From a virus, in IMG/VR virus record IMGVR_UViG_3300032087_005129: a stretch of 64,000 nucleotides of DNA, one strand, 5' to 3'. This document shows, one piece after another, positions 7,594 to 59,176 of the stretch. The notes under the pieces were generated by a model. It had not been told where the DNA came from, ran no database searches, and was given only the letters and a program-made list of their open reading frames with translations. Made by a program: the position numbers and the translations under genes. Numbering within the stretch: the stretch's first letter is position 1; each line of letters starts with the position of its first letter.

Positions 7594-8235
7594 ATGATTA
7601 TGTTATTGAATAAAAAATGGTTGAAAAAAGGTTTATCAATACTTGCTTTGATTTTTCTTTTGTCAATACTTGCAGTTTTAGCAAGACAAAGTTTTTATCC
7701 TGCTTTTGGCAACATGAGAGATGTGTCTGTTCGTGCCACTCTGACAGAATCGTTTCAGAACATTTCACAATTGAATGTATTGAAGGTTTCTATGGCAGGT
7801 ATTGTTGATGGTGTTGATGAATCTTTCTGGGGAGACAACAAGGTACTAATTGTGGCACAAGGATATGCAAATCTTGGTGTTGATCTTTCGTATGTGAACA
7901 TTTACGTTGATGAGCAAGAAGTACAGATCATTGTTCTTGAGCCACAGGTGACTGACGCTTATATCGACATGTCACAATCAAGAATCTATGAAAGAGAACT
8001 TGGCACCTTTCGTGTTGATACGAACGGGGAACTTGAAAACTTGACATGGCAAAAAGCACATGATAAGATGATTGATATGGCTTATGATGAAAAGAATGTT
8101 TCTATGGCGAAGACAAATACGGTTGCGTTGATTCGTGCTTTGATCTCACCATACATAGGAAACAGAACATTGACGATTGAGTTTCTAAAGAACGAAAACT
8201 ACATTGAGGTAATTGACAATGAAATTAACAAGTGA
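7594..8235 (+). CDS. DUF4230-like membrane-anchored protein
   Basis: N-terminal TM; 'LIVAQG...GVDLS...P.V' and 'AKTNT...I..L' pattern. Confidence 0.6.
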   Translation: MIMLLNKKWLKKGLSILALIFLLSILAVLARQSFYPAFGNMRDVSVRATLTESFQNISQLNVLKVSMAGIVDGVDESFWGDNKVLIVAQGYANLGVDLSYVNIYVDEQEVQIIVLEPQVTDAYIDMSQSRIYERELGTFRVDTNGELENLTWQKAHDKMIDMAYDEKNVSMAKTNTVALIRALISPYIGNRTLTIEFLKNENYIEVIDNEINK

Positions 8236-8371
8236 AGAGATTGATATGATTCTAGATTGTCTTACGCAGCGAGCAGAGTCAATGCGTTTCTATGGCAGCA
8301 GTGCTGAGTATAAAGAATCGAAAAAATACTTTGACTTGATTCAAAAAGTTACTAAACTGAAAGAGCAATAA
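8219..8371 (+). CDS. small hypothetical protein
   Basis: MKLTSEEIDMILDCL...; GAGG SD upstream; below ORF-track cutoff. Confidence 0.45.
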   Translation: MKLTSEEIDMILDCLTQRAESMRFYGSSAEYKESKKYFDLIQKVTKLKEQ

Positions 8372-8377
8372 AAATAC

Positions 8378-8449
8378 GCCAACGTAGCACAACGGTAGTG
8401 CAGTTCACTTGTAATGAACAGGTTGCTGGTTCGAATCCAGTCGTTGGCT
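8378..8449 (+). tRNA. tRNA-Thr(TGT)
   Basis: Cloverleaf GCCAACG/CGTTGGC, anticodon arm GTTCA-CTTGTAA-TGAAC, GGTTCGAATCC; no CCA. Confidence 0.95.
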
Positions 8450-8463
8450 TTCGGAGATAAAAC

Positions 8464-8631
8464 ATGGCAGGAAAAGGCGATTCATATCGAAAAGTGAATC
8501 AAAAGAAATGGGAAGAAAATTGGGAAAGGGCTTTCGGTGCTAAAAACAGGAAAAGAAACACACCAACAAATGCAAAAGGCGTATCTTCGAGGAAAAAGAA
8601 AACCTCTACCCGTAACAACAACAAACACTAA
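8464..8631 (+). CDS. small basic hypothetical protein
   Basis: MAGKGDSYRKVNQKKWEENWERAFG...; GGAG SD upstream. Confidence 0.55.
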   Translation: MAGKGDSYRKVNQKKWEENWERAFGAKNRKRNTPTNAKGVSSRKKKTSTRNNNKH

Positions 8632-8664
8632 AGAGTGGATTGAAAAAATCAAAAAGGATAAACA

Positions 8665-8994
8665 ATGAGTAATGTGAAAAATGTGAGTCTTGCTACAGGT
8701 GAAAGTATTATTGCTGATTGCAGTGGTCTTGGCGAAGACAAAAAATACTTTGAAATCAAAAACGCAGCAATTGTATTGCGTAAAGATATTGCATCGCCAA
8801 TGATGCTTCTGCCTTGGATTGATCATGCAGAAAAAGATCAAACTATTTCTATTAGTTCAGATAAAGTTATTTGGTATTGTGATGTTAGTGATGAGTTAGA
8901 AGATCAGTATGATAAAGCCGTGACGAAGTGGTATTCGAACCTTGTTGTTCCTGATGCTGCAACGACACAAAGACTAAAGATTACTGAAGATTGA
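8665..8994 (+). CDS. hypothetical protein (possible Sm-like fold)
   Basis: V.LATGE.IIA...L.PW pattern typical of T4-like small proteins. Confidence 0.55.
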   Translation: MSNVKNVSLATGESIIADCSGLGEDKKYFEIKNAAIVLRKDIASPMMLLPWIDHAEKDQTISISSDKVIWYCDVSDELEDQYDKAVTKWYSNLVVPDAATTQRLKITED

Positions 8995-9000
8995 TTTTAG

Positions 9001-9073
9001 GCTCTCGTAGCATAACGGATAATGCAACTGACTTCTAATCAGTAGATTGCAGGTTCGAATCCTGCCGAGAGCG
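9001..9073 (+). tRNA. tRNA-Arg(TCT)
   Basis: GCTCTCG/CGAGAGC acceptor, ACTGA-CTTCTAA-TCAGT anticodon arm; no CCA. Confidence 0.95.
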
Positions 9074-9098
9074 TTTTGCAAATAAAAGGAGATTTATT

Positions 9099-9272
9099 AT
9101 GAAAAAAATTGCAAAGGTTTGTCACGTTTTAGGTTTTGCTTCGATTGCACTTTCTGCCTATTGCTACAATGCATATGGTATCGCTGATGCGACCTATGTT
9201 GGTCTTTGGGTTCCTTCGTTCTTTCTTGTAGGCAATTTCTTTGCTTGCAAATCACATTGTAAGAAGAAGTAA
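9099..9272 (+). CDS. small two-TM membrane protein
   Basis: MKKIAKVCHVLGFASIALS...YVGLWVPSFFLVG; AGGAG SD. Confidence 0.6.
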   Translation: MKKIAKVCHVLGFASIALSAYCYNAYGIADATYVGLWVPSFFLVGNFFACKSHCKKK

Positions 9273-9297
9273 ATAGGGGTGATTTAATCACCCAATC

Positions 9298-9371
9298 GGG
9301 AGTGTAGCCCAATTGGCAGAGGCGCAAGATTTAGGTTCTTGTTGTTGTAGGTTCGAGTCCTATCACTCTCA
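9298..9371 (+). tRNA. tRNA-Leu(TAG), short variable loop
   Basis: GGGAGTG/CACTCTC acceptor, CAAGA-TTTAGGT-TCTTG anticodon arm. Confidence 0.9.
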
Positions 9372-9373
9372 TT

Positions 9374-10000
9374 ATGAGTATTTTGTTTTTGACATTAATT
9401 TTAAATATTGAAAATAAATCGGTTTATCAAACACCGCTTGAAAGACTTGTTCATCTTGTTGAGTCTGATGGTAGACTTACAAACAACGAGCCTATACTAG
9501 GTGACTGGTGTGAAAAAAGACAAAGGTTTCTTTCGAGAGGGCCTTTGCAAATAACCAGAGATTGTCATACCGATGCTAATGTTAGTTTTCCGTATGAAGA
9601 GGTAGATAGCCTAGAAAACTCACTGATTGTTTTTCGTAAATATATGAAACGATATGCCAACAAAGATAGATTTGTGCGATTAGGCATTAATAGAGAACCT
9701 ACCGCAGAAGACATGTTAAGAATTTGGGTTGGTGGACCAAAAGGCTTTTTGAAAAAGTCAACAGATTCTTATTGGGAAAATAGTTTAAGGAGATTTTTGA
9801 TGAAACTCAATGTAGGGCAAAAAGTATTTTGTAAGAGTTCAAATAGAGAGGCAACTATTGTCTCAATCAACGAAGAAAAGATTACAATCAAGTATGAGAC
9901 ATCTGGTGAGATCACAGAAGTAACACAAGGACAGATTTCACAGTTGCTTCTTGGAAACAATGATCAATCAGATCAAACTTTTTTACAAGAGGGTCAATAA
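9374..10000 (+). CDS. invertebrate-type (destabilase-like) lysozyme domain followed by a small SH3/Tudor-like domain
   Basis: VESDG...GD...SRGPLQI...YM.RY...RIWVGGPKG..K..T..YW; in-frame internal AGGAG+ATG at 9800. Confidence 0.6.
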   Translation: MSILFLTLILNIENKSVYQTPLERLVHLVESDGRLTNNEPILGDWCEKRQRFLSRGPLQITRDCHTDANVSFPYEEVDSLENSLIVFRKYMKRYANKDRFVRLGINREPTAEDMLRIWVGGPKGFLKKSTDSYWENSLRRFLMKLNVGQKVFCKSSNREATIVSINEEKITIKYETSGEITEVTQGQISQLLLGNNDQSDQTFLQEGQ

Positions 10001-10968
10001 TGGGAAAGTGTCCATTTTCAATATTTCAAAGCAAAAAAGGTCGTGTTGAGGAAGTAAAACCCTCCATCGTACAAGATCATACAGAATCACCTTTCTTAAG
10101 AGTGAGAAGATTACATCCAACCCAAGGGATTAAAATTGTTCCAGCAAACCGTAAACTAATAGGTCCTGATGGTCAAAATGAAACAGAGCATAATTACTCT
10201 AGATCTGGAGCGATCAAAAGATGCGGCCCTTATGTTCACGCAAACAGTTTAGGTTGGTGGATCTTTCCTGCTGTCGATTTAGATGCTACTTATCACCCCA
10301 ACGGTGAATGGACAATACACGAATATAACAAGTTTGATGAAATTCAACAACATGAGTACCTGTCTAGTCTACCATCCTATGAGTATAAAACAGAGAGTGG
10401 AGAAACTCGTGAATTACCATCAAAATATTTAACTAGAAGTTATGTTAATGCAGGTCTCGCAGATGAGAATATTCTTCAAATCTGGACAGGAGTTATTCTC
10501 AGAACACCGCCTGGTTGGGGACTTTTAATTCGAAGTCCAATCAATGTGGAAGAGGACTATGATAGATCTTGGTACATTCAAGAGGGAGTCATAGAATCTG
10601 ATTGGATGGATTATGATATTTGGACAAATATTGTTTTTAAGAAGCCAAATCAGAAAGTTGAAATACGTCAAAAGATGTGGCCTCCCCTCGCACAAATTGT
10701 TCCAATTCGTCGAGAAGCCTATGATACAAAATGGGATATTGATGATCAGTTAATTACTGCTGATGATCCAGAATTTGCTTCTTGGCAAGATTATACCTTT
10801 AAAAAATGGACACAGATAAACGAAAAAGAAGGTAAAACATATTACAAAGAGCGAGCAGTTCAAAAACCACGTCCTGATGATTCAAAGATTGAGTCTCTTC
10901 GTGAAAAATATGCTACCAGTAGAAACGAACATCAGGTAAGAAAAGATGTGAAAAAGGATTCAGAATAA
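10000..10968 (+). CDS. DUF6065-like protein
   Basis: RCGPYVHANSLGWWIF...TG.ILRTPPGW.LL...P.N...EG.IE.DW. Confidence 0.65.
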   Translation: MGKCPFSIFQSKKGRVEEVKPSIVQDHTESPFLRVRRLHPTQGIKIVPANRKLIGPDGQNETEHNYSRSGAIKRCGPYVHANSLGWWIFPAVDLDATYHPNGEWTIHEYNKFDEIQQHEYLSSLPSYEYKTESGETRELPSKYLTRSYVNAGLADENILQIWTGVILRTPPGWGLLIRSPINVEEDYDRSWYIQEGVIESDWMDYDIWTNIVFKKPNQKVEIRQKMWPPLAQIVPIRREAYDTKWDIDDQLITADDPEFASWQDYTFKKWTQINEKEGKTYYKERAVQKPRPDDSKIESLREKYATSRNEHQVRKDVKKDSE

Positions 10969-10973
10969 AATCA

Positions 10974-11046
10974 GGCCCTGTAGCCCAACGGTAGAGGCAG
11001 TGGACTTAAAATCCATACAGTTCGGGTTCGAATCCCGATGGGGCTA
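10974..11046 (+). tRNA. tRNA-Leu(TAA), short variable loop
   Basis: GTGGA-CTTAAAA-TCCAT anticodon arm, GGTTCGAATCC; acceptor stem has three G-U pairs. Confidence 0.85.
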
Positions 11047-11050
11047 TTTC

Positions 11051-11575
11051 TCAAGGATTACCAAATAGATCATTGAGGAACTCATTAAATTGAGGCAACA
11101 ATGTATCAACTAGTTCTCCAAAATCAATTCCAATAATCTTAAGAATTTGTCTTTCGAGGAATGTCAGTGGTTCGCCTATCATCCACTTTAGCATTATGCC
11201 TGTCATGGTCCCGAACCACCACTCATTTTGCAAATCAGGATACATGTTTCTGATAAGTTCTAGAAGTTTTCTTCTTTGTGCTTTGCTAAGTTCAGGACGA
11301 AGTTCTTTTGGTAGACCTCTACCTTTCAAGTATCTCTTAAGAATTTTTCTTGGTCCTTGACCTGTTTGTTGTCTGATTAGATCTATAATCCATTGAGGAA
11401 GATCACTCGGCAGATTCACTGCGTCACCTAGTCCAGACTCTGTTTCAGTATCTGGAGTAACAGGTGGCACAACTGGTGGTGGTGGCATTCTATTGCCTCC
11501 GGATGGTACTTGCTCGTTGAGTGCCTGACGATATCCTGCTTCGTATGCTTCTTGTAGTTTATCTTTAAAGTTCAT
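11051..11575 (-). CDS. hypothetical protein, Pro-rich linker
   Basis: 174-aa ORF; MNFKDKLQEAYEAGY..LNE N-terminus. Confidence 0.6.
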   Translation of the reverse strand: MNFKDKLQEAYEAGYRQALNEQVPSGGNRMPPPPVVPPVTPDTETESGLGDAVNLPSDLPQWIIDLIRQQTGQGPRKILKRYLKGRGLPKELRPELSKAQRRKLLELIRNMYPDLQNEWWFGTMTGIMLKWMIGEPLTFLERQILKIIGIDFGELVDTLLPQFNEFLNDLFGNP

Positions 11576-11584
11576 TTCTCTTCC

Positions 11585-12412
11585 TTACTGGGGTGATAGT
11601 TTACCAACTAGATCAAATACTTTCTTTGCAATTGCACTGTCTGGATCTAGGTTCTGCTTACCTGATGATTTGAGTTTGAAATATTTGAAGTCTTTGATTG
11701 CAAAAGGTAGTCCCTCTTTACCATTTGTTGGTCTGCCTTTTTCATCAGAGTAGAAAACAGTGTTGTTTGGTCCACCAATAATCACATAAAACTCACCGTT
11801 GATTTCTTTTGGATATCTGCGAATGAAATAATCTGTCATGGTCTTTGCAGCACCACGGTGTGTCTGAATCAAAACTCTTTCAGGAACAGTTCTTGCTCTT
11901 TTTCTGTTTTGAACCATTGCCATTCTGTAATCAGTAAGCGCCCAAATGATATGAATATTTTCTGGTTTGTATCCTGCTTTCATTAGCGTTGGTAGATATT
12001 CATAGAAATCACCAGAGTCTTTCATTGTTTTGTCGATGACAATATTGGGTAGATTGCCAGAAGCAGTCTTTCTAAAAAGCAGTGATGTTTTCTTACCCAT
12101 CAAACCTTTGCCTTTGATTGTGGCGTGAAGTTTGGCAACATCATCAGGATTCTTCATGTCTAGGTTGGCATACTCTGGATACTTGTCAGGGTATTTTTTG
12201 CCAAGCGAAAGAGCCAAAATTTTCAACTCATCAGGATCAACAATCTTGTATGAGTCTGCTGCCACAAAGTTCTTGATGGCAAAACCCTTGCCTGAGCCTG
12301 CTCCCCCTGCGAAGAAAATAACCTGACCTTCTTTCTTGCCTTTGTTGACAACGATCAGTTTCTCGTTTAGAATGTTTCCTATCTCGCCAAGATAGTTCGA
12401 AAATGAAAGCAT
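11585..12412 (-). CDS. P-loop kinase/ATPase (zeta-toxin/AAA_33-like)
   Basis: Walker A GGAGSGKG, NIVID, RNR.R.R-like lid (QNRKRART); AATAAATA late promoter at 12431-38 on the - strand. Confidence 0.7.
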   Translation of the reverse strand: MLSFSNYLGEIGNILNEKLIVVNKGKKEGQVIFFAGGAGSGKGFAIKNFVAADSYKIVDPDELKILALSLGKKYPDKYPEYANLDMKNPDDVAKLHATIKGKGLMGKKTSLLFRKTASGNLPNIVIDKTMKDSGDFYEYLPTLMKAGYKPENIHIIWALTDYRMAMVQNRKRARTVPERVLIQTHRGAAKTMTDYFIRRYPKEINGEFYVIIGGPNNTVFYSDEKGRPTNGKEGLPFAIKDFKYFKLKSSGKQNLDPDSAIAKKVFDLVGKLSPQ

Positions 12413-15572: not shown

Positions 15573-15711
15573 AATGGCAAGACAAACCACAAACGAAAAA
15601 GCACATGTTCAGGGTCTTTTGAAAGAGGGTCGTTTGCGTCCTTCTAAGAGATCAAAAAGACCAGGTGCTGCTCGAACAAGTCGATCAGGTAACGGAAAGA
15701 AAATTAAGTAA
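15573..15711 (+). CDS. small basic protein (coordinates approximate)
   Basis: MARQTTNEKAHVQGLL...RSGNGKKIK; AGGAG SD. Confidence 0.45.
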
Positions 15712-16685
15712 TGTCAAAGTGTCCTTTTGGTTTTATAGCAGAAAAGTTTAACAAGGATAATCCTGATCTGAAAACAACAAAAGAAAGTTATCCAAAAGAA
15801 ACTTTTGATGAGTCTAAACTTTCAATCATTGCACATGATGTTGGTGCTGCTGAATGGGGTATTGAAATAGAAACCGCACCATCTCAAAGAGAATGGATGA
15901 CTGACACGAAAGGTCATGCTTACAAGTGTTTACCTTTGGTTGCCGCAAATAACCTAGGTTGGGTATTGAGATGTCCATCATCTTTTTCTGCTTATTGGAC
16001 TGGTAATAAAGGATTAAACTCTGTTCGTATAATTCCACACACAAAAGAAAAAATTAATTTTGTCCAATCGCATTTTGGACATGGAACTTTAACTTTTCAT
16101 CCTGGGTTTATTTTTACAACAACAAAAAATCACGGACTCTATGTAAAAGGACCAACAAACCTTCCCGACTTTGAAAAAAAAATGGGCATAACACCATTAG
16201 AAGGTCTTGTTGAAACTGACTGGCTTCAATTTTCATTTACAATGAACTGGAAATTCACTGAGTCTCGAAGACTAGTTACTTTTTATCAAGATGACATTTT
16301 TTGTCAATTTTTTCCATATCCTAGAAGTTATGTTTCGCAGTTTGAAACAGACACAAGATTAATTGAAGACAGTAAAGGTTTTGAAAAGTCTGTGCGAAAT
16401 TACAAAGAACATCGAGATCTTGTGCAAAAGACAATTGAAGAAACAAAAGAATCGCCGCCAAAAGATATTCAACTACACTATCTTCGAGGAGAAAATATTG
16501 ATGGTACAAAAACTTCAATTTCAGAACTTGGTTTTACACATGAACCCAAGTGCGGTGCAAAAAAGTTTCCTGTGATATCTAAAGATCAATTGGTGTATGA
16601 AACTGAAGAGATACAAGATCTTTTAGACAAAGGCGCCGAACATGAAGAAATAGTTGAAAAGATTAAAGAAAAAAATGAAGATTAA
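15711..16685 (+). CDS. DUF6065-like protein (paralog of 10000..10968)
   Basis: HAYKCLPLVAANNLGW, SHFGHGTLTF, PLEGLVETDW.F.FTMNW. Confidence 0.75.
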   Translation: MSKCPFGFIAEKFNKDNPDLKTTKESYPKETFDESKLSIIAHDVGAAEWGIEIETAPSQREWMTDTKGHAYKCLPLVAANNLGWVLRCPSSFSAYWTGNKGLNSVRIIPHTKEKINFVQSHFGHGTLTFHPGFIFTTTKNHGLYVKGPTNLPDFEKKMGITPLEGLVETDWLQFSFTMNWKFTESRRLVTFYQDDIFCQFFPYPRSYVSQFETDTRLIEDSKGFEKSVRNYKEHRDLVQKTIEETKESPPKDIQLHYLRGENIDGTKTSISELGFTHEPKCGAKKFPVISKDQLVYETEEIQDLLDKGAEHEEIVEKIKEKNED

Positions 16686-16687
16686 AC

Positions 16688-16715
16688 AAGACCCCGTAAG
16701 GGGTCTTTAATTTTT
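16688..16715 (+). terminator. intrinsic terminator
   Basis: AAGACCCC-GTAA-GGGGTCTT then T-rich tail. Confidence 0.8.
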
Positions 16716-16798
16716 CACACAACGCTAATACATCCTGTACTAAAAATTAACACTCCCAATAATAAGTAATTGTTTGCCAATTTTTAGGGGAGTTTCAC

Positions 16799-18400
16799 AT
16801 GACAAATCTCGTTCTTGCTTTTACTCTGGCAGCAAACATTGATGTTACTGAAGACATCGCAACATCAACAACTTGGACTGCGGACAACACCTACAATCTA
16901 ACAAAACAAATTTATGTGTTGCCGGGGGCAACTTTGACAATTGAAGCAGGAACAATCATTGCTTCAGAAGCAACTGCAAATGGTGCAGGTGGTTTATGTG
17001 TGACAAATGGCGCACAAATTTTTGTAAACGGAGAAAGACACGCACCAGTCGTGATGACTTCAACCCTTGATGATGGGACTTGGAGAGCATCTGCGAATGA
17101 GTGGGGTAATCTTACGCTATGCGGTGATGCATATATCGGATTCGATGGTGTAACAAACTCTGGAGGTTTCCCTTCAAACACCCTGACTCCGAGTGCATCT
17201 AACCAAGCAAACATGGAAGGTCTTGTTGAAACAGCAGGCAACTCATCTCTAAATAATTATGGTGGTGGTGATGACGATTATGATGCAGGCAATTTATCTT
17301 ATCTGTCTATTCGCTATGCGGGTAGAGTTGTCGGACTATCTAATGAACTCAATGGTCTGTCTCTTGGTGCTATTGGTCGGGATACGAAAATCCATCACAT
17401 CGAAGTAATGAACAACGTCGATGACGGCATCGAGATTTGGGGTGGTACGGTTGACCTCAAGTATGTCTCTATCTGGAATGTTGGTGATGACTCGTTTGAT
17501 GTTGATCAAGGTTGGAGAGGTCGGGCGCAGTTTGGTTTGATCGTGCAAGGCTATTCACGAAACGCTTCACAAGGTTCTGGACTCGGTGACAATATCTTTG
17601 AGTTTGATGGTGCAGAAAACTCTGATGCTCAACCAAGAACTCGTGCAGCAATCTATAACTTTACCACGATTGCAAACACTGAGTCTGGCGATGGTACAAC
17701 AACTTGGAGAGACAACGCATCGGTTCAATTCCGAAACAATATCTTCATCGGTAAAGGCGACAAACTTGTTCGTGCTGATGGGGATGATGGAGATGGATCT
17801 TCTGGGTATGGTCACAACGGTTCTCTGACGCTCGCTGAACGCTTTGAGACAGATGCAGTGGGATCAAACGGGATTGCTTACATTGATCCTGTAAACGCTG
17901 GTGCTTCTTCTATGATGGACAATCTGTATCAAGCACAAACCGATGGTAAACTTGCAGAATTGTCAAACAACATTATCTCTGGTTTTGGTGATATTTCCGA
18001 TGACCCATACTACGACATCGTGCCTGCGTCAATGCGTGTCACAAATGTTGAAACCGCAGAACTTCCGATTCGCACACTGGTTCGTGCGCCGAGTGTTGTT
18101 GTCGGTGGTAAGTCTGTGAATGCTGTTGTGTCAATTGACCCGACACCGATTGACTCTGACATTATCACGACACCCGCTCCTGCACCTGCAAATGGTTTCT
18201 ATTCACCCGTCACCTATCGTGGTGGTTTTGCTCCCGATGAAAACTGGTTGCTCGGATGGTCTGCTGCTGATGAGTTTGGTTTCTTGACAGGAACAGACGA
18301 TAGCGATTGTGGAACTTGTAAGGGTGATGCAAATGCCGATGGTGTGGTTGGTTTCCTTGACCTGACTACTATTCTTGGAAACTGGGGATGCGAAGGCTAA
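16799..18400 (+). CDS. secreted beta-helix surface protein (TonB-system-associated bacterial family) with C-terminal dockerin-like anchor
   Basis: Short signal-like N-terminus; TTWT..Y.L..GATLTIEAGT...P.V.TS...WG.L...YGG...G.LSY..IRY.G...ELNGL.LG...DDGIE.WGG..DDSFD.D.G..G..QF; ends CKGDANADGVVGFLDLTTILGNWG. Confidence 0.75.
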   Translation: MTNLVLAFTLAANIDVTEDIATSTTWTADNTYNLTKQIYVLPGATLTIEAGTIIASEATANGAGGLCVTNGAQIFVNGERHAPVVMTSTLDDGTWRASANEWGNLTLCGDAYIGFDGVTNSGGFPSNTLTPSASNQANMEGLVETAGNSSLNNYGGGDDDYDAGNLSYLSIRYAGRVVGLSNELNGLSLGAIGRDTKIHHIEVMNNVDDGIEIWGGTVDLKYVSIWNVGDDSFDVDQGWRGRAQFGLIVQGYSRNASQGSGLGDNIFEFDGAENSDAQPRTRAAIYNFTTIANTESGDGTTTWRDNASVQFRNNIFIGKGDKLVRADGDDGDGSSGYGHNGSLTLAERFETDAVGSNGIAYIDPVNAGASSMMDNLYQAQTDGKLAELSNNIISGFGDISDDPYYDIVPASMRVTNVETAELPIRTLVRAPSVVVGGKSVNAVVSIDPTPIDSDIITTPAPAPANGFYSPVTYRGGFAPDENWLLGWSAADEFGFLTGTDDSDCGTCKGDANADGVVGFLDLTTILGNWGCEG

Positions 18401-19029
18401 TCAGAACATTTGTTGCTTTCATTCTTGGGTTAGTATGCACAGCATTCTTCTTTATGCTGTTGCCATTACTTCAAGCGATCAACTCTCCATTCCAAGGTGA
18501 TTCTATGGTACGAACGATGGAAATAGTCAGCGTCCCACCACCTCCACCACCACCGATGGATGAACCGGATAAGCCTGAACCCGAACCAGAGCCAGAACCA
18601 CCTCAGATAGAATTCACACCTGAACCGCTCGACATCAGCCAGTTAGAGGTTATGCTCAATCCCGGCTTTGGTGATTTTATGGGTGGTGACTTCGGTATTC
18701 AGTTGAAGAGTGCAATAGCAAATAGCGAAGAGATGAATGAAATTTTTTCTTCGTCAGAACTCGATCAGAAGGCTCGCCGTTTGAGTGTGGTACAACCTCG
18801 TGTCACCTCTACGTTACTTCGTCAAGCCCCTGCGACCGTAGTAGTAATCTTTATTGTTGATGAAAATGGCAGGGTTCAAGATCCCAAAATTCAGCGAACG
18901 ACTAATCCATCCTTTGATCGATCTGCTCTTTCTGCTATCAAGCAATGGAAGTTTGAGCCTGCCAAAGTTCAGGGTCGTGCCGTTTCAAGTCGTCTGCGAC
19001 AATCATTTTCTTTTGAAAATAACGTATAA
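18388..19029 (+). CDS. tonB: TonB energy transducer
   Basis: N-terminal TM, poly-Pro/EPEP spacer, C-terminal V.FIVDENGRV...AL.AIKQWKFEPA...G..V domain. Confidence 0.88.
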   Translation: MRRLIRTFVAFILGLVCTAFFFMLLPLLQAINSPFQGDSMVRTMEIVSVPPPPPPPMDEPDKPEPEPEPEPPQIEFTPEPLDISQLEVMLNPGFGDFMGGDFGIQLKSAIANSEEMNEIFSSSELDQKARRLSVVQPRVTSTLLRQAPATVVVIFIVDENGRVQDPKIQRTTNPSFDRSALSAIKQWKFEPAKVQGRAVSSRLRQSFSFENNV

Positions 19030-19032
19030 ATA
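19025..19032 (+). promoter_or_regulatory. T4-type late promoter
   Basis: TATAAATA directly upstream of the 19047 ORF. Confidence 0.75.
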
Positions 19033-19046
19033 AAAGCATCGAGGTT

Positions 19047-20432
19047 ATGATGCTTGAAAAATACCCTGAAAACACAAAACTTGTTCTAAGCACACAAAAC
19101 TCTTTGGGTCGAAAACTTGAATCGTTTGGCTATAAAAACAAAGATGTTTTTGTGGTTGAAAAAGAAACCAAGACGAACAACAACATCAAAATATCAACAA
19201 AAGCAAAGCAGCACACAATCTATGTGAGTGGCCCCGATGGCTATGTCTTTAAACTATCTGTATCAGAAAAAGTCTTTGAAGGTGCTTTCACAGCATCTAA
19301 AAGTGCCAAACAAAAGATTGATCCCACTCGTTTCGAAATTGACATCGTAAATGAGATTAATGAGCGAGGGGGAAAGCAAACATTTAATGGCGGCAACGAA
19401 ACAATTGCATCGTCTGAACTGGCAAAATCAATTGTTGACTCACTCGAAGACAAGATTGGCAAAGTAAAGTCTGCAAGACCTGTCTCTGGCACATCAGTCA
19501 CTTCAAATTTAACAAAACTATATCAACAGTTTGGCGTGAAAAGCGGTGAGCCTAAAACAGATATTATAGTCGATGCAGGTAAAGAGTTTCTTTGCTCAGT
19601 TAAAAAGAAAGAACGTTCTCAGTTTGCAGCAGCACAACATAATGAGATTGCTGCTGTTGTTCAGGTTGTATTTCAGAACTCAAAAGAAGAAAAGAAACTT
19701 GCCAAAGATCTTGCCTCTATTGTGAAGAACATCATCTCAAAAGAAAACTATTATGAACTTCGAAGTCGAATACCAAACTATGATGAAGTTGTCGGTAGTG
19801 TTCTTCGTTTTTCGCCAAACAAACCAAAGAAAGAAGACTTTGAAGCATTCAATTTGATTCTGAATGAAACGGGTCTTGCAAAAAAGTTTAGCACAAGCAT
19901 TCTTGAATTGATGAATCGGAAAGATACACAAAGAAGAATTTTTCAAGAACTCATTGTCGGTGAGAAACGATTTGTAAACAAAGAACATAGTCCCTCACAC
20001 ATTTTTGCTTGGTCGGAATCTACAGGTGAAATATTCATGCAGGATATTTTTGATTATGTTGACAACTCATTCAAGCGTGGTGCGTTTCGTTTTGGTATTT
20101 CAGATCGTGGAAACAGAAGAGGTGGATCATTTAGATTAGCCCCCACAGATCTTAAAGAATGGAGACTTACAAAAGAACAATTCTATAAATACCAAGAGTT
20201 AAATGAAGTGTTCGATTGTGAAATGAATCAAGTAATTCAAGAGGCAATGGTTCAAAAATTGAAATCTTTTGGTAAAGAAACAAAAGAAAAGGTTGCAAAC
20301 GCAATTCGATATCTAGCCAATCTGGCAAAAAAGATCTTTTCGTTTGTTTCTCTTCTAATTAGTAAGGGTATTGGAAAACTAAGTGAGATGTTTGGTCTTG
20401 AATATGAGGCAGAGATTAAATACTCATTCTGA
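19047..20432 (+). CDS. hypothetical protein with possible PD-(D/E)XK nuclease-like core
   Basis: EPKTDII...CSVKK motif. Confidence 0.5.
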   Translation: MMLEKYPENTKLVLSTQNSLGRKLESFGYKNKDVFVVEKETKTNNNIKISTKAKQHTIYVSGPDGYVFKLSVSEKVFEGAFTASKSAKQKIDPTRFEIDIVNEINERGGKQTFNGGNETIASSELAKSIVDSLEDKIGKVKSARPVSGTSVTSNLTKLYQQFGVKSGEPKTDIIVDAGKEFLCSVKKKERSQFAAAQHNEIAAVVQVVFQNSKEEKKLAKDLASIVKNIISKENYYELRSRIPNYDEVVGSVLRFSPNKPKKEDFEAFNLILNETGLAKKFSTSILELMNRKDTQRRIFQELIVGEKRFVNKEHSPSHIFAWSESTGEIFMQDIFDYVDNSFKRGAFRFGISDRGNRRGGSFRLAPTDLKEWRLTKEQFYKYQELNEVFDCEMNQVIQEAMVQKLKSFGKETKEKVANAIRYLANLAKKIFSFVSLLISKGIGKLSEMFGLEYEAEIKYSF

Positions 20433-21929: not shown

Positions 21930-23081
21930 ATGAGTGACTACACAGAAGAAGAATTTTTAGACGAGCAAATGATGGGCTTTCAATCAGGTCTACTTGGTCG
22001 ACCTGAAGAGGAAGAAGACGAAGATGATGACTCTTTTTCTAGCACTATGCCGGGAAAAAGACTTCTCTCTCCTTTTGACCCAGAAAGAAAACCAGACTTA
22101 AAGATTCGCGGTAAGGACGATGTTCCGCCATCAGCGAAACCTAAGTTTGGCCCCCCAACAGGTAAGCAAATGCCTGGTATGCCAAAGATGCCTGGTATGC
22201 CTCAAGTGCCTGGTATGCCAAAGATGCCTCAGATGCCTGGTATGCCTCAGATGCCTAAGATGCCTCAGCAAGGTCTTGTGCCGAAAAAAGATTTGCAGTT
22301 TCCTGTAAAGCCACCTGCCCCTCAGGCTGGTAAACCTGCTGGTATGCCTGATCTTGGTGCGTTGATGCAACAGATGATGCAAAAGAAACAACCGCAAGCG
22401 CCTCAACAACAAGCACCAATGGGTGGTCTTGGTGCTATGATGGGCGGTATGATGGGTCAGCAAGCACCGCAGCAGGCGCCCCAACAAGCACCCCAACAGC
22501 AGCAACAAGATCAGTTTGCTACAATTAAGAAGCCTGGTGATCCTGATCCAGAATTTGTTGGTGGTGACATTGATCAAATGGCAAACCCTGTTAGAGACTA
22601 TGATGCAAAACAAGGTCTTCCTCAATATGGTCAACAAAGTCAGAAGCCTTACAATCAACAAGAGATTCTTGATAAACTTGCCTTTGGTGGTCAATACGCA
22701 AAAGACGAAAATCTAGACTTCAAGCCAATGGGTGCTACGTTCAAAGTTTATGCGAATTCACCTCAGCAAAGAGATCAGATCGAGAAGTATGCTTTGAGAT
22801 TTGGTGAAACAGGATCAAAACCAAATATTTCTCTTGGTGGTATTGAAAACAAAGGTGGAAGAGAAACGTTTGTTATTGTAATCAATAGTAACAACGACTC
22901 TGTGTATCGTGAGTTAAATCGATACCTTCAGTCAATTGGTGTTGAGTTTGAAGAACAACAACTTCTTCCTGGTCAACTTGAAGATCAAGAAACTAAGCAG
23001 AAGAAAGAAATGGAAAAACAACAAGGCGGCGGCGGAGGCGGCGGTCTTGGTGCATTAGGAGCCCTCTTGGGGGGTATGTAA
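21930..23081 (+). CDS. low-complexity Met/Pro/Gln/Gly protein
   Basis: MPGMPQ/MPK tandem repeats near 22170-22265; AATAAATA upstream. Confidence 0.6.
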   Translation: MSDYTEEEFLDEQMMGFQSGLLGRPEEEEDEDDDSFSSTMPGKRLLSPFDPERKPDLKIRGKDDVPPSAKPKFGPPTGKQMPGMPKMPGMPQVPGMPKMPQMPGMPQMPKMPQQGLVPKKDLQFPVKPPAPQAGKPAGMPDLGALMQQMMQKKQPQAPQQQAPMGGLGAMMGGMMGQQAPQQAPQQAPQQQQQDQFATIKKPGDPDPEFVGGDIDQMANPVRDYDAKQGLPQYGQQSQKPYNQQEILDKLAFGGQYAKDENLDFKPMGATFKVYANSPQQRDQIEKYALRFGETGSKPNISLGGIENKGGRETFVIVINSNNDSVYRELNRYLQSIGVEFEEQQLLPGQLEDQETKQKKEMEKQQGGGGGGGLGALGALLGGM

Positions 23082-56406: not shown

Positions 56407-56414
56407 TATAAATA
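56407..56414 (+). promoter_or_regulatory. T4-type late promoter for the dockerin-protein genes
   Basis: TATAAATA then AAGGAG SD. Confidence 0.75.
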
Positions 56415-56435: not shown

Positions 56436-57464
56436 ATGAAAAAAATTGCTTTATTGCTTTGCAGTGTTTTTACATACAATACAACTGCAAACACTGACTG
56501 CCTAGATGTTTCTGGCGATATCATCGCTGTTGACCGTGGCAGAATCACACCATTCGGTAGAACGTTTGATCTTTACATCAAAACGAACGGGCGAAGACCG
56601 CTTGGTTTGGGTGCGTCTTGGCCACGCATTCACAATGACCTTGCTGTTCCTTTTCGGTGGGAAACAGAAGGTGAGTTTTTCTTCAACCGAAATTTAAACA
56701 CCCAACCTACTCTCGAAAATTCACCAGAGGCAATGGAATATTGGCTCAACAAGTATGAGTGTCCAAACATTAATGGGGTGTATGATTGTGAACCAGGAGA
56801 ATATTTCTTCTGCATGCAAGACAATCCATACAACAACTGGCTCTACAGCAATCACGAAGTTTCACAGCGTTGGGATGTCATCGGTCCCTACGGCATTCCA
56901 CGATGGAACGAACCTTACTATGACTCATACTGGGACAAGGGAACCTCATGGTTGGTAATGAATCGTCCCGGTTACATCTTCCCCGAAAGCACCAGCGGCG
57001 ACCAAGCCACACCAAGAATCGATCAAAGTAAAGGATTGTTGTTGCAAAACGATTACTACTTTGAACAAGCACCAACGCCCTATGACGGTTATGAAAGTTA
57101 CGAATGTGGTGGGTACAACTATAACGAATTTGGTAAAGTCATTGAGTTTGGTTCTGGTGATTGGGAAGATGACGAAATGGAAAACCACTACCGCTTTGCT
57201 CGCATGACAGGTATTGATCGTATCGCAATCAGCGGTGTGATTATTTACAGTGCAGTTGATTGCCAAGATCTGAACTTTGCTGAGCCTGTTTTCTTTGAGT
57301 ATGAACCAGACAACTCTTGTCCTGCTGATTTGGACGAAGATGGTAGAGTTGGTTTTTCAGACTTGCTTACTGTACTGAGTAATAACATTTACGCACCAGG
57401 AGCAAGAAAGACACAGTTTGATGCTTTGATTGAAGTTATTTCGCAATGGGGAGATTGTCAATGA
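56436..57464 (+). CDS. secreted acidic/aromatic protein with C-terminal dockerin-like anchor
   Basis: Signal MKKIALLLCSVF...A; ends PDNSCPADLDEDGRVGFSDLLTVLS...FDALIEVISQWGDC. Confidence 0.75.
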   Translation: MKKIALLLCSVFTYNTTANTDCLDVSGDIIAVDRGRITPFGRTFDLYIKTNGRRPLGLGASWPRIHNDLAVPFRWETEGEFFFNRNLNTQPTLENSPEAMEYWLNKYECPNINGVYDCEPGEYFFCMQDNPYNNWLYSNHEVSQRWDVIGPYGIPRWNEPYYDSYWDKGTSWLVMNRPGYIFPESTSGDQATPRIDQSKGLLLQNDYYFEQAPTPYDGYESYECGGYNYNEFGKVIEFGSGDWEDDEMENHYRFARMTGIDRIAISGVIIYSAVDCQDLNFAEPVFFEYEPDNSCPADLDEDGRVGFSDLLTVLSNNIYAPGARKTQFDALIEVISQWGDCQ

Positions 57465-58465
57465 TTTTAGAATTACTTTGTGCTACAGCACTTTCACAAA
57501 CAGAAATTGTTTATAAAGATTTGGGTAGACTCACACCGTTCGGAAGAACCATTGATGTCTACATTAAGAACACTCGCGGTGATGTTCCTGTTAAATTAGG
57601 ATCTGAAGGTCCAGGCACTTCTGTTGCTTGGTGGATTGACGGAAAGGTTTGGAAGAACCACAACGATTCGCAAATGGACTTCCTACTGAATGACCCTGCA
57701 AATGTTGAATTTTTGGAACAACAAATTCCAAACTTCTCTGACTGGGAAGCAGGTGAATGGTGGGAGTGTATGCAAAACAATCCAAACCAAACTGTCTACT
57801 GGCAGAACACCGATGTTCCAAGATTCTATTATCAAACTACTAGTGTTGATGGTTTGTTCTGGGGTGATTTACAAACATCACTGATTGAACAAGATTACTG
57901 GTGGGCAGACTCATGGATCGTGATGAACGAACCGTGGCAACAAAGTGGAAACAACGCAAGCACATTCACAGTGCAACCTGAGATTCCACAGTTTGTCGGT
58001 AATCTGCTTGAAGATGACCGAGTGATTTTCTGGGCTGGTGCTGCACCCCCGAACGAATACGGCACCGTTCTTTGCCCTCCACCCGACGAAAACGGAAACT
58101 TTGGATATCCGTGGTCTTGGTCTGGTCAACTGATGCGATTCAAGAATTACGGTCCCGATGATGTGAACCCGTGGGAGTCCACTGAGTTTGACAATCACTG
58201 GCGAATTGCTCGCATCACTGGTCCCGACTATATCGGCATTGGTGGAGTGGTTCTTTACAATCCAGAGAACGAAGAAGCGTACACTGAAGCCACAGGAGCA
58301 GGGCAAATCTTCCCTGACAACTCTTGTCCATCTGACTTGAACGAAGATGGAATTGTTGGCTTTAGTGACTTGATTCAAGTTTTGTCTGATGTCTCAGCAA
58401 GACGATATCGTGTCGATGGCTTCGAAGCGATTGTTAAGGTATTGTCAGAATGGGGTTCTTGCTAA
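57461..58465 (+). CDS. secreted protein with C-terminal dockerin-like anchor (paralog of 56436)
   Basis: Shares GR.TPFGRT.D.YIK, .CMQ.NP, SW.VMN.P, NH.R.AR.TG; ends PDNSCPSDLNEDGIVGFSDLIQVLS...VLSEWGSC. Confidence 0.75.
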   Translation: MILELLCATALSQTEIVYKDLGRLTPFGRTIDVYIKNTRGDVPVKLGSEGPGTSVAWWIDGKVWKNHNDSQMDFLLNDPANVEFLEQQIPNFSDWEAGEWWECMQNNPNQTVYWQNTDVPRFYYQTTSVDGLFWGDLQTSLIEQDYWWADSWIVMNEPWQQSGNNASTFTVQPEIPQFVGNLLEDDRVIFWAGAAPPNEYGTVLCPPPDENGNFGYPWSWSGQLMRFKNYGPDDVNPWESTEFDNHWRIARITGPDYIGIGGVVLYNPENEEAYTEATGAGQIFPDNSCPSDLNEDGIVGFSDLIQVLSDVSARRYRVDGFEAIVKVLSEWGSC

Positions 58466-58552: not shown

Positions 58553-59176
58553 ATGATGAAATACTTGGCGCTGACACTAGCGACTGCTGCTCTTGCTGAT
58601 ATCGGTGGAGACCCAGTGGCATCACTTGAGTCAGAAATTTATGGCGAGAACTGGGCTGCTACAGTTAGATCATCTGTCTACACAGAAAACGAGCAACAAG
58701 ATCAACTAGGACTACCTGACGGTTCAATACTAATCACATACACAATCTACAATAGCGAAGAATCACTGTCTGAAATTGAAGACGTTGATATTTTTGTTGG
58801 CACTAAAACCGAAGAAAATAGTCATCTTTCTGTTCCTGGATACTTTCAACAACCAACAGATGATGAAAATAGACAAGCATATAACGCACCCGACTATGTT
58901 GATTTTGCGTACGAAACAGGGTTGTACAACTGGGACTGGGGCGCCGAGGGAAACTTTTTCTCCTCAGGATTGAAACCTGGGGAATACGCAACTCTATTCG
59001 TGATATCATGGACGGATGGATGGATCGAGAATCCTGGCATCGTTCAGGGTGGAGGTGACGCAGGGATCTTTTTTGCTTTTGTTCCTGAGATTGACGGACA
59101 AGAAATACCTGCACCTGGCACACTCACCCTTCTTGGTCTTTCGATCATTGGCAACAGAACCAGAAAGCGTAGATAA
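58553..59176 (+). CDS. PEP-CTERM (IPAPG-type) sorting-signal protein
   Basis: Signal MMKYLALTLATAALA; ends IPAPGTLTLLGLSIIGNRTRKRR. Confidence 0.85.
   Translation: MMKYLALTLATAALADIGGDPVASLESEIYGENWAATVRSSVYTENEQQDQLGLPDGSILITYTIYNSEESLSEIEDVDIFVGTKTEENSHLSVPGYFQQPTDDENRQAYNAPDYVDFAYETGLYNWDWGAEGNFFSSGLKPGEYATLFVISWTDGWIENPGIVQGGGDAGIFFAFVPEIDGQEIPAPGTLTLLGLSIIGNRTRKRR

Follow-up and report, generated by a model that had tools for sequence, protein, structure and literature searches.

A host-derived beta-helix and tonB gene pair in an uncultured marine T4-like phage, a possible auxiliary module for TonB-dependent uptake

The DNA examined here, called the window, is a stretch of 64,000 nucleotides from a virus (IMG/VR record IMGVR_UViG_3300032087_005129), and the subject is a pair of overlapping genes within it, one encoding an exported beta-helix protein of the Beta_helix_4 family (hereafter BH4) and the other an intact TonB. 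The listing of open reading frames (ORFs) places both genes exactly where a first-pass annotation, made from the sequence alone, had put them: after a terminator, with the 533-residue protein running into the start of tonB (Table 1). By gene content the window belongs to a T4-like myovirus, with T4-type DNA polymerase, RegA, gp32, gp59, RNase H, and primase, the nucleotide metabolism genes for ThyX, class II ribonucleotide reductase (RNR), and dUTPase, the baseplate proteins gp5, gp6, and gp53, tail fibers, and 5 tRNAs. Its DNA polymerase is ~50% identical to cyanomyovirus polymerases, and no closer. Phage genes flank the BH4-TonB pair on either side, and the pair is located among the replication genes, outside the structural module. 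No cultured or deposited phage has DNA similar to this region or a similar TonB, and the matches to BH4 in these phages are just three weak beta-helix hits. The host of this uncultured marine phage is probably a planktonic member of the Phycisphaerae (Planctomycetota).

On the 5′ side the pair is bounded by the terminator hairpin, and equivalent hairpins stand before BH4 in 5 related viral contigs. The leader that follows contains the ribosome-binding site AGGGGAG ahead of BH4 (positions 16786 to 16792) and two motifs, AACGCTAAT (16721 to 16729) and AATAAGTAA (16761 to 16769), both of which are kept upstream of BH4 in related phages. Elsewhere in the window these motifs are unique or occur at chance frequency, and the idea that they mark a general promoter class of the phage was rejected. 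The window has 11 copies of the T4 late-promoter word TATAAATA, only on the plus strand, compared with 1.9 expected by chance; no copy lies in the leader, and none precedes the pair. The copy that forms the 3′ boundary would drive the next gene (19047 to 20432). Because the pair has its own terminator boundary, its own ribosome-binding site, and no late promoter ahead of it, it looks like a separate, non-late unit, and the 13-nt overlap of the two genes suggests that their translation is coupled. The gene that abuts the cassette on its 5′ side (15711 to 16685; E = 5.5e-66) is one of two DUF6065 paralogs in the window, the other lying at 10000 to 10968 (E = 1.6e-13).

Table 1. Positions of the features of the BH4-TonB unit in the window and of the porin genes in related contigs
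Feature	Position	Strand	Description
Intrinsic-terminator-like hairpin	16688..16707	+	Ends the upstream DUF6065 gene; 8-bp stem with 5 GC pairs, T-run
Cassette-specific leader	16708..16798	+	Two motifs and a ribosome-binding site, without T4 late-promoter motif
BH4 gene	16799..18400	+	533 aa, PF28492 (Beta_helix_4)
BH4 Sec-type signal peptide	16799..16834	+	MTNLVLAFTLA|A, short; predicted by alignment
Cys-flanked single dockerin-like Ca-loop module	18308..18391	+	C-x2-C-x-G-D-x-N-x-D-G ... W-G-C
tonB gene	18388..19029	+	213 aa; ATG 13 nt within the BH4 gene
TonB N-terminal membrane anchor	18406..18471	+	aa 7-28, clade motif FFMxLPLLQ; from alignment
TonB proline-rich and Glu-Pro spacer	18535..18603	+	aa 50-72, PPPPPPP...EPEPEPEPP; from sequence and alignment
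TonB C-terminal receptor-contacting domain	18832..19017	+	aa 149-210, PF03544
T4-type late-promoter motif TATAAATA	19025..19032	+	Overlaps the stop codon of tonB; bounds the unit on its 3′ side
Porin gene	L070:2747-3568
Porin gene	L072:1911-2669
Porin gene	L076:5628-6479
Porin gene	L078:7017-7865
Porin gene	L079:5373-6212

The phage TonB matches TonB_C (PF03544) in Pfam with an E value of 2e-13 (51 bits versus a cutoff of 24.6) and TIGR01352 in NCBIfam with 46.2 bits (cutoff, 27.1). Together with a hydrophobic anchor and a spacer, both read from sequence and alignment, these matches bear out the earlier description of an intact TonB with membrane segment, proline-rich spacer, and C-terminal domain. 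Every position that is invariant in its clade is kept in the phage copy. The anchor of Escherichia coli TonB carries a conserved histidine in an SHLS motif. No anchor histidine is found in the phage copy or in any of 30 aligned clade members, and its absence is, by this alignment, a trait of the clade and not a phage defect.

The partner protein is assigned to PF28492 indirectly, through tags precomputed on its homologs, since the Pfam release that was scanned lacks this newer family and gave no direct match: all 120 listed homologs, including those 92% identical to it, carry the tag, and the nearest atlas clusters are 100% PF28492. An AlphaFold model built with 40 homologs (pLDDT 85, pTM 0.87) predicts a right-handed parallel beta-helix, which aligns with many beta-helix proteins (Z of 16 to 21, root mean square deviation of 3 to 4 Å over 250 to 310 residues), generic matches only. 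Sequence and profile searches of PDB returned nothing, and Foldseek gave no match below an E value of 0.01. The phage protein retains 118 of 118 invariant columns in a 40-sequence alignment, and the invariant acidic core motifs NELNGLSLG, MNNVDDGxEIWGG, GDDSxDxDxGxRG, and DGxExS are present. Its leader aligns with the AxA-type leaders of bacterial homologs and has no lipobox cysteine, pointing to the signal-peptidase-I type. In large databases its relatives form a tight group at 74 to 92% identity and then fall to 45 to 59%, the latter from Planctomycetota, Kiritimatiellota, Omnitrophota, and Sumerlaeota.

The protein ends in ...CKGDANADGVVGFLDLTTILGNWGCEG, and the first-pass annotation had called it a dockerin-anchored surface protein, a description that is not upheld. 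A type I dockerin needs two tandem 22-residue Ca-binding repeats, but BH4 has one D-x-N-x-D-G loop, and the Pfam scan gave no Dockerin_1 (PF00404) match at E values up to 0.01. Across the aligned homologs the tail is variously absent, single, double, or swapped for other domains, and 21% of the nearest atlas cluster carry a Dockerin domain. Two paralogous late proteins of the window (56436 to 58465; 342 and 339 residues, with signal peptides, after a TATAAATA copy at 56407) each end in the same type of Cys-flanked module, split by an insert of ~20 residues, and the module also terminates ORFs of the host. Since it is shared with these late phage proteins and with host ORFs (L056), the tail of BH4 is best described as a C-terminal module of the host clade, for which an anchoring role would be hypothetical.

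The adjacent pair, with the same overlap, is found in at least six independent IMG/VR contigs (L069-L076), a recurrence that argues against an assembly chimera. The gene order in these relatives is ThyX, class II RNR, porin, BH4, TonB, a small ORF, and a RuvC-like gene; the window differs in that it has no porin and in that its pair lies ~14 kb from ThyX-RNR. Either BH4 or the porin directly follows class II RNR in five contigs (L002, L070, L076, L078, and L079). The sister-phage porin is a signal-peptide protein of 256 to 283 residues encoded directly upstream of BH4; its 256-residue version is modeled as a 16-strand barrel (pLDDT 86) that matches OmpU, the Rhodobacter porin, and OmpF at an E value of ~6e-11. 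With the sister-phage porin as the query, no homolog was detected in the host-like genome, and only ~20 metagenomic relatives were obtained. The cassette also varies in content. Two contigs (L078:8001-10388 and L079:6366-8768) carry porin and BH4 without TonB, with the small ORF and then the RuvC-like gene directly after BH4. In a third (L076:6628-8588, the same as L080:8001-9961), a deletion of ~250 nt fuses BH4 to TonB and breaks both, cutting BH4 after residue 468 and removing the first 16 residues of TonB and hence its anchor. A T7-like podovirus contig of 63.6 kb (L002, with DNA polymerase A and T7 portal, capsid, tube, and nozzle proteins) carries BH4 immediately after class II RNR and without TonB (8056 to 11611).

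Where do the two genes come from? The closest bacterial copies belong to marine Phycisphaeraceae, at 73 to 77% identity for BH4 and 82 to 85% for TonB (L007 and L008), and along its whole length the phage TonB shares 83% of its residues with the TonB encoded in the operon of another such locus (L001). Among species-representative genomes, the best BH4 matches are metagenome-assembled genomes of marine Phycisphaerae (73 to 77%). In the bacteria, the two genes lie ~8 kb apart within one conserved cluster of ~10 genes, ordered as BH4 (often two tandem paralogs), a 403-residue protein, a receptor, a DUF3450 protein, a large ExbB-like protein, ExbB, ExbD, TonB, and a tetratricopeptide repeat (TPR) protein. 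In this cluster the DUF3450 protein corresponds to TtpB and the large MotA/ExbB-like protein is TtpC-like, while the receptor, of 1,028 residues, has a SusC-style N-terminal carboxypeptidase-regulatory domain and falls in the Xanthomonas/Caulobacter subfamily of TonB-dependent receptors. A census of 48 bacterial loci, mostly from Planctomycetota with some from Sumerlaeota, found the 403-residue partner in 43, the receptor beside the beta-helix gene in 41, and each Ton gene in 34 to 39, the missing genes being mostly due to contig ends. The statement in the first-pass annotation that this beta-helix family sits in operons with a TonB-dependent receptor, ExbBD, and TonB is thus well founded.

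The 403-residue partner (L008:11707-12915 and ~43 other bacterial loci), which was not taken by the phage, is helical, has a signal peptide and the invariant motifs P-x2-PH, NPN-x-RP, and a PW end, and has no match in Pfam or NCBIfam. The ORF downstream of the phage pair (19047 to 20432) was compared with it and ruled out as a counterpart. Another feature of the bacterial loci is the motif CTGAAC(A/G)GAATCTTTAC, found ~100 to 150 nt upstream of the first BH4 gene in five of them (L001, L005, L006, L007, and L008); it may be a regulator site of marine Phycisphaeraceae and is absent from the phage leader. The host-like genome G002 (2.0 Mb) encodes a single TonB_C protein and two Plug-domain receptors, the second of which lies in an operon for a Zn/Mn-type ABC transporter. 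A streamlined planctomycete of the marine Phycisphaeraceae, with one dedicated Ton cluster, is the likely host. Cobalamin import was considered, given the class II RNR and the position of BH4 next to RNR in relatives, and was not supported: the second receptor is linked to Zn/Mn, neither receptor locus of the host-like genome has a cobalamin riboswitch, and the host-like loci searched contain no cobalamin receptor.

The phage BH4 and TonB both fall within a Phycisphaeraceae clade with 100/100 support in their trees, and sequence comparison identifies the Ton cluster of this family as the source of both genes. The myovirus copies of BH4 group in a single clade (100/99) that is sister to the two bacterial paralog clades, and the podovirus copy is nested in one of the bacterial paralog clades, beside a contig that is bacterial by its neighbors. 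Since the podovirus and myovirus copies are placed apart, BH4 was acquired at least twice, and the podovirus gene represents, by its tree position, an independent capture. A TonB tree, a check proposed with the first-pass annotation, places the origin in Phycisphaeraceae (100/100), but its inner branches do not separate one capture from several. The window and related viral sequences together amount to 258 kb, in which no other gene of the donor cluster was detected and the receptor and ExbBD likewise have no detectable homolog, extending an absence first noted for the window; three whole viral records contain no ExbB-family gene. The capture is therefore selective, with only BH4 and TonB taken. 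As ExbB and ExbD are present in the donor operon but were not detected in the viral DNA, the phage must rely on the host copies.

Both genes have evolved under constraint in phages. Among phage copies, at dS values of 0.3 to 1.0, dN/dS is 0.03 to 0.07 for TonB and 0.05 to 0.16 for BH4, indistinguishable from the host-to-host values of 0.02 to 0.09 and at odds with a degenerate TonB evolving at dN/dS near 1. Synonymous sites are saturated between phage and host, and the GC content of the two genes (45 to 46%) lies between that of the host (56 to 58%) and that of the phage (39%), which marks the transfer as old and the genes as maintained since then. Retained invariant positions and purifying selection together are strong indications that the phage TonB and BH4 have been kept functional.

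A further lead was ElpS, which the first-pass annotation had named as a likeness. ElpS (CC0170) of Caulobacter crescentus is a lipoprotein of ~50 kDa whose gene neighbors are the TonB-dependent receptor CC0171 and type II secretion genes (PMC2996285). Phosphate starvation induces ElpS, and alkaline phosphatase activity accompanies it, although the protein itself shows none (PMC2996285; PMC11208175). Compared with a syntenic ElpS-type lipoprotein of Caulobacterales standing in for CC0170, residues 45 to 328 of the phage BH4 are 32% identical over 284 residues (E = 1e-31). A homolog is present in 60 of 81 Caulobacterales genomes sampled; in 4 of 5 such genomes tested, one of 510 to 560 residues lies ~8 kb upstream of gspF, and one of these loci has the order homolog (with an LAGC lipobox), receptor, GspD, GspE, GspF. 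Homology to ElpS-like and to TonB-receptor-linked families is thus established, and the two proteins share a beta-helix core with acidic core motifs, export, and an adjacent receptor gene. There are also differences. ElpS is a lipoprotein with a link to the type II secretion system (T2SS) and, as noted, with a tie to phosphate starvation and phosphatase activity. In the phage and Planctomycetota proteins, by contrast, the leader is of the signal-peptidase-I type, the C-terminal third differs, and a dockerin-like tail may be present or absent; no T2SS genes were noted among the annotated donor-locus genes or beside the phage pair. Because it has this type of leader instead of a lipobox, BH4 is regarded as a relative of ElpS and not an ortholog. 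Hence, as far as sequences tell, the link is real at the superfamily level only, and the phosphorus context is real for the alphaproteobacterial branch. A phosphate-regulon setting was observed on that distant branch in a Hyphomonadaceae locus (L050:3095-15291), where one finds, in this order, a receptor, a beta-propeller phytase, PhoU, a PhoB-type regulator, a TPR protein, a 921-residue tandem-domain BH4 homolog, and a second receptor.

What might the phage gain from these genes? We propose, with a probability of roughly 0.55, that the BH4-TonB pair is a host-derived auxiliary module that replenishes TonB-dependent uptake of the host during infection. The pair would be expressed early or in the middle of infection, as a terminator-bounded unit of its own with no late promoter. 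BH4 would leave the cytoplasm by the host Sec pathway and act outside it; TonB would enter the host inner membrane and couple the proton-motive force of host ExbB and ExbD to the receptor plug. The two phage proteins would presumably cooperate with persisting host ExbB/ExbD and receptors, so that import of the substrate, and likewise of the cargo of the second, Zn/Mn-linked receptor, would continue or rise after the phage has shut down host gene expression, to the presumed benefit of phage yield. In E. coli, TonB is the least abundant component of the Ton complex and is unstable without ExbB. The constraint that is equal in phage and host, the selective capture, the convergence between phage types, and the porin added in sister phages all fit an auxiliary role. 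A wider version of the proposal, which we advance tentatively and at somewhat less than even odds, is that lytic phages infecting marine Planctomycetota carry a modular "outer-envelope import kit" made up of a porin, an exported ElpS-related beta-helix, and TonB, which unrelated T4-like and T7-like phages put together convergently and which re-supplies the only TonB-dependent system of the host. Phosphorus compounds are suggested as the substrate only by way of the distant alphaproteobacterial ElpS branch.

Several observations weigh against the replenishment proposal. ExbB, ExbD, and the receptor must all be supplied by the host, and their compatibility with the phage components is assumed, although such compatibility is plausible at 83% identity between the TonB proteins. 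The module is not essential in nature, given the two relatives without TonB (L078 and L079) and the deletion that breaks both genes in L076/L080. An intact, conserved TonB would be equally expected if the phage protein served to titrate ExbBD. As for phosphorus in particular, PhoH and PstS were not found among the window ORFs scanned, a search for Pho-box-type tandem repeats upstream of the phage BH4 found none, giving only one 7-nt repeat (spacing of 80) and AT-rich palindromes, and a phosphate context is seen for distant alphaproteobacterial homologs only.

Titration belongs to a serious but less likely alternative, interference or superinfection exclusion; the first-pass annotation had already raised interference with the TonB-dependent entry of competing phages. 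Here TonB would titrate ExbB/ExbD or occupy TonB boxes while BH4, with the porin in sister phages, remodels or masks the outer membrane, so that competing phages, or progeny attaching to cells already doomed, would be denied entry through TonB-dependent receptors. Coliphages T1 and phi80 are established examples of TonB-dependent entry, and some phages encode porins that replace the receptor, as in Lc of the lambdoid phage PA-2. The host-like genome has merely two TonB-dependent receptors, which makes them plausible phage receptors; the cassette is patchy among close relatives, as is common for exclusion genes; and only envelope-acting parts were captured. Yet the phage TonB shows no sign of altered function, keeping its length, anchor, spacer, C-terminal domain, and clade-invariant residues with a dN/dS equal to that of the host, and BH4 is intact at all 118 invariant positions. 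For a dedicated blocker, keeping the anchor as well as the receptor-binding domain intact would be unnecessary, and the independent capture of BH4 alone by a podovirus is more easily explained if the native activity of BH4 is useful.

A further possibility is that BH4 is a polysaccharide-active enzyme, a secreted or virion-borne depolymerase that clears capsule or slime to aid release or entry, with TonB a passenger or in a separate role. Its fold is the right-handed beta-helix of pectate lyases and tailspikes (Z of 16 to 21 to tailspikes and to alginate and pectate lyases), the atlas label of the family is "pectate-lyase like," and the stacked ladder of invariant Asp and Glu residues resembles a catalytic or Ca-binding groove. 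This is nevertheless improbable: the PDB and Foldseek searches gave no specific enzyme family, BH4 carries a signal peptide but lacks a tail-attachment domain, and its gene, which no late promoter precedes, is not part of the structural module. The protein is, moreover, 73 to 77% identical to cellular proteins fixed in a Ton uptake cluster, and its 13-nt overlap with TonB and the same linkage in six contigs tie it to that partner. Least probable by far is neutral or decaying passenger DNA, or an artifact of assembly or binning. One relative has a deletion that breaks both genes and two have no TonB, but purifying selection among phage copies is strong at dS up to ~1, the GC content is partly ameliorated toward the phage value, the same junction is repeated in assemblies made independently, where ThyX, class II RNR, and the RuvC-like gene flank it, and phage genes stand on both sides in the window; an artifact is effectively excluded.

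The BH4-TonB genes would thus belong to a category already known, host-derived nutrient-uptake auxiliary genes. Known marine auxiliary genes serve photosynthesis, phosphate binding, and nucleotide supply, and marine T4-like cyanophages carry pstS and phoA, whose products, a periplasmic binding protein and a phosphatase, serve nutrient uptake. The present pair resembles pstS and phoA in being host-derived envelope or periplasmic uptake genes of lytic T4-like marine phages, with patchy presence and a presumed supply role, but it comprises an outer-membrane energy transducer and a beta-helix exoprotein, with a porin in sister phages, and concerns a planctomycete host. Surface accessory proteins are a feature of the SusC/SusD-type receptor complexes of Bacteroidota; the donor cluster shares with them the SusC-style N-terminal domain of its receptor and conserved exported partners (BH4 and the 403-residue helical protein), but it has no SusD homolog, its partners are not lipoproteins in this clade, and no glycan-utilization genes lie nearby. 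The TonB2-type system of Vibrio, composed of TtpB (DUF3450), TtpC, ExbB2, ExbD2, TonB2, and TtpD, serves iron uptake (PMC6957404). The donor cluster has the same six-part architecture (DUF3450, MotA/ExbB-like, ExbB, ExbD, TonB, and TPR proteins) and adds a receptor, a beta-helix gene, and the 403-residue partner, whereas the phage carries TonB alone. Ton-system genes in phage genomes have appeared as passing annotations, tonB in lambda-like prophages (PMC7288430) and TonB-dependent receptor genes in temperate phages of ammonia oxidizers (bioRxiv 10.64898/2026.05.02.722434). For none of those was a donor locus, a partner gene, or an analysis of selection given, whereas here the phage is T4-like and of lytic type and the donor operon is defined. 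Among the papers searched, none described TonB, an ElpS-like partner, or a BH4-TonB cassette in a lytic-type marine phage.

Auxiliary genes reveal the host process that is limiting for phage production in nature. If the import kit is real, it would be the first characterized viral auxiliary gene for the energy transducer of outer-membrane active transport, and a phage TonB with an exported partner would add energized outer-membrane import to the auxiliary functions of phages. It would then point to a substrate in short supply, perhaps a metal or a compound of phosphorus, as limiting for phages of planktonic Planctomycetota, and the pair would offer a handle on the substrate of a gene cluster conserved across the sampled loci. 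To our knowledge, almost no phages of planktonic Planctomycetota have been studied; BH4 and TonB would link uncultured T4-like and T7-like lineages to marine Phycisphaeraceae hosts. They also flag a cluster present in most of the 48 loci, in which the two members selected by phages are the obvious first targets for biochemistry.

Four other genes of the window deserve mention. A 275-residue protein with a Zeta-toxin-type kinase domain (E = 1e-6) is encoded on the minus strand between the tRNA and replication genes (11585 to 12412). The ORF at 21930 to 23081 encodes a low-complexity protein of 383 residues without family match, with PGMP(K/Q)M and QAPQQ repeats and a Gly-rich C terminus. The phage RNR (31388 to 33310) contains the insertion domain of B12-dependent class II enzymes. 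Finally, a 207-residue signal-peptide protein of the baseplate region (58553 to 59176) ends in IPAPG, a hydrophobic stretch, and RTRKRR, which looks like a PEP-CTERM-type sorting tail in a lytic-type phage.

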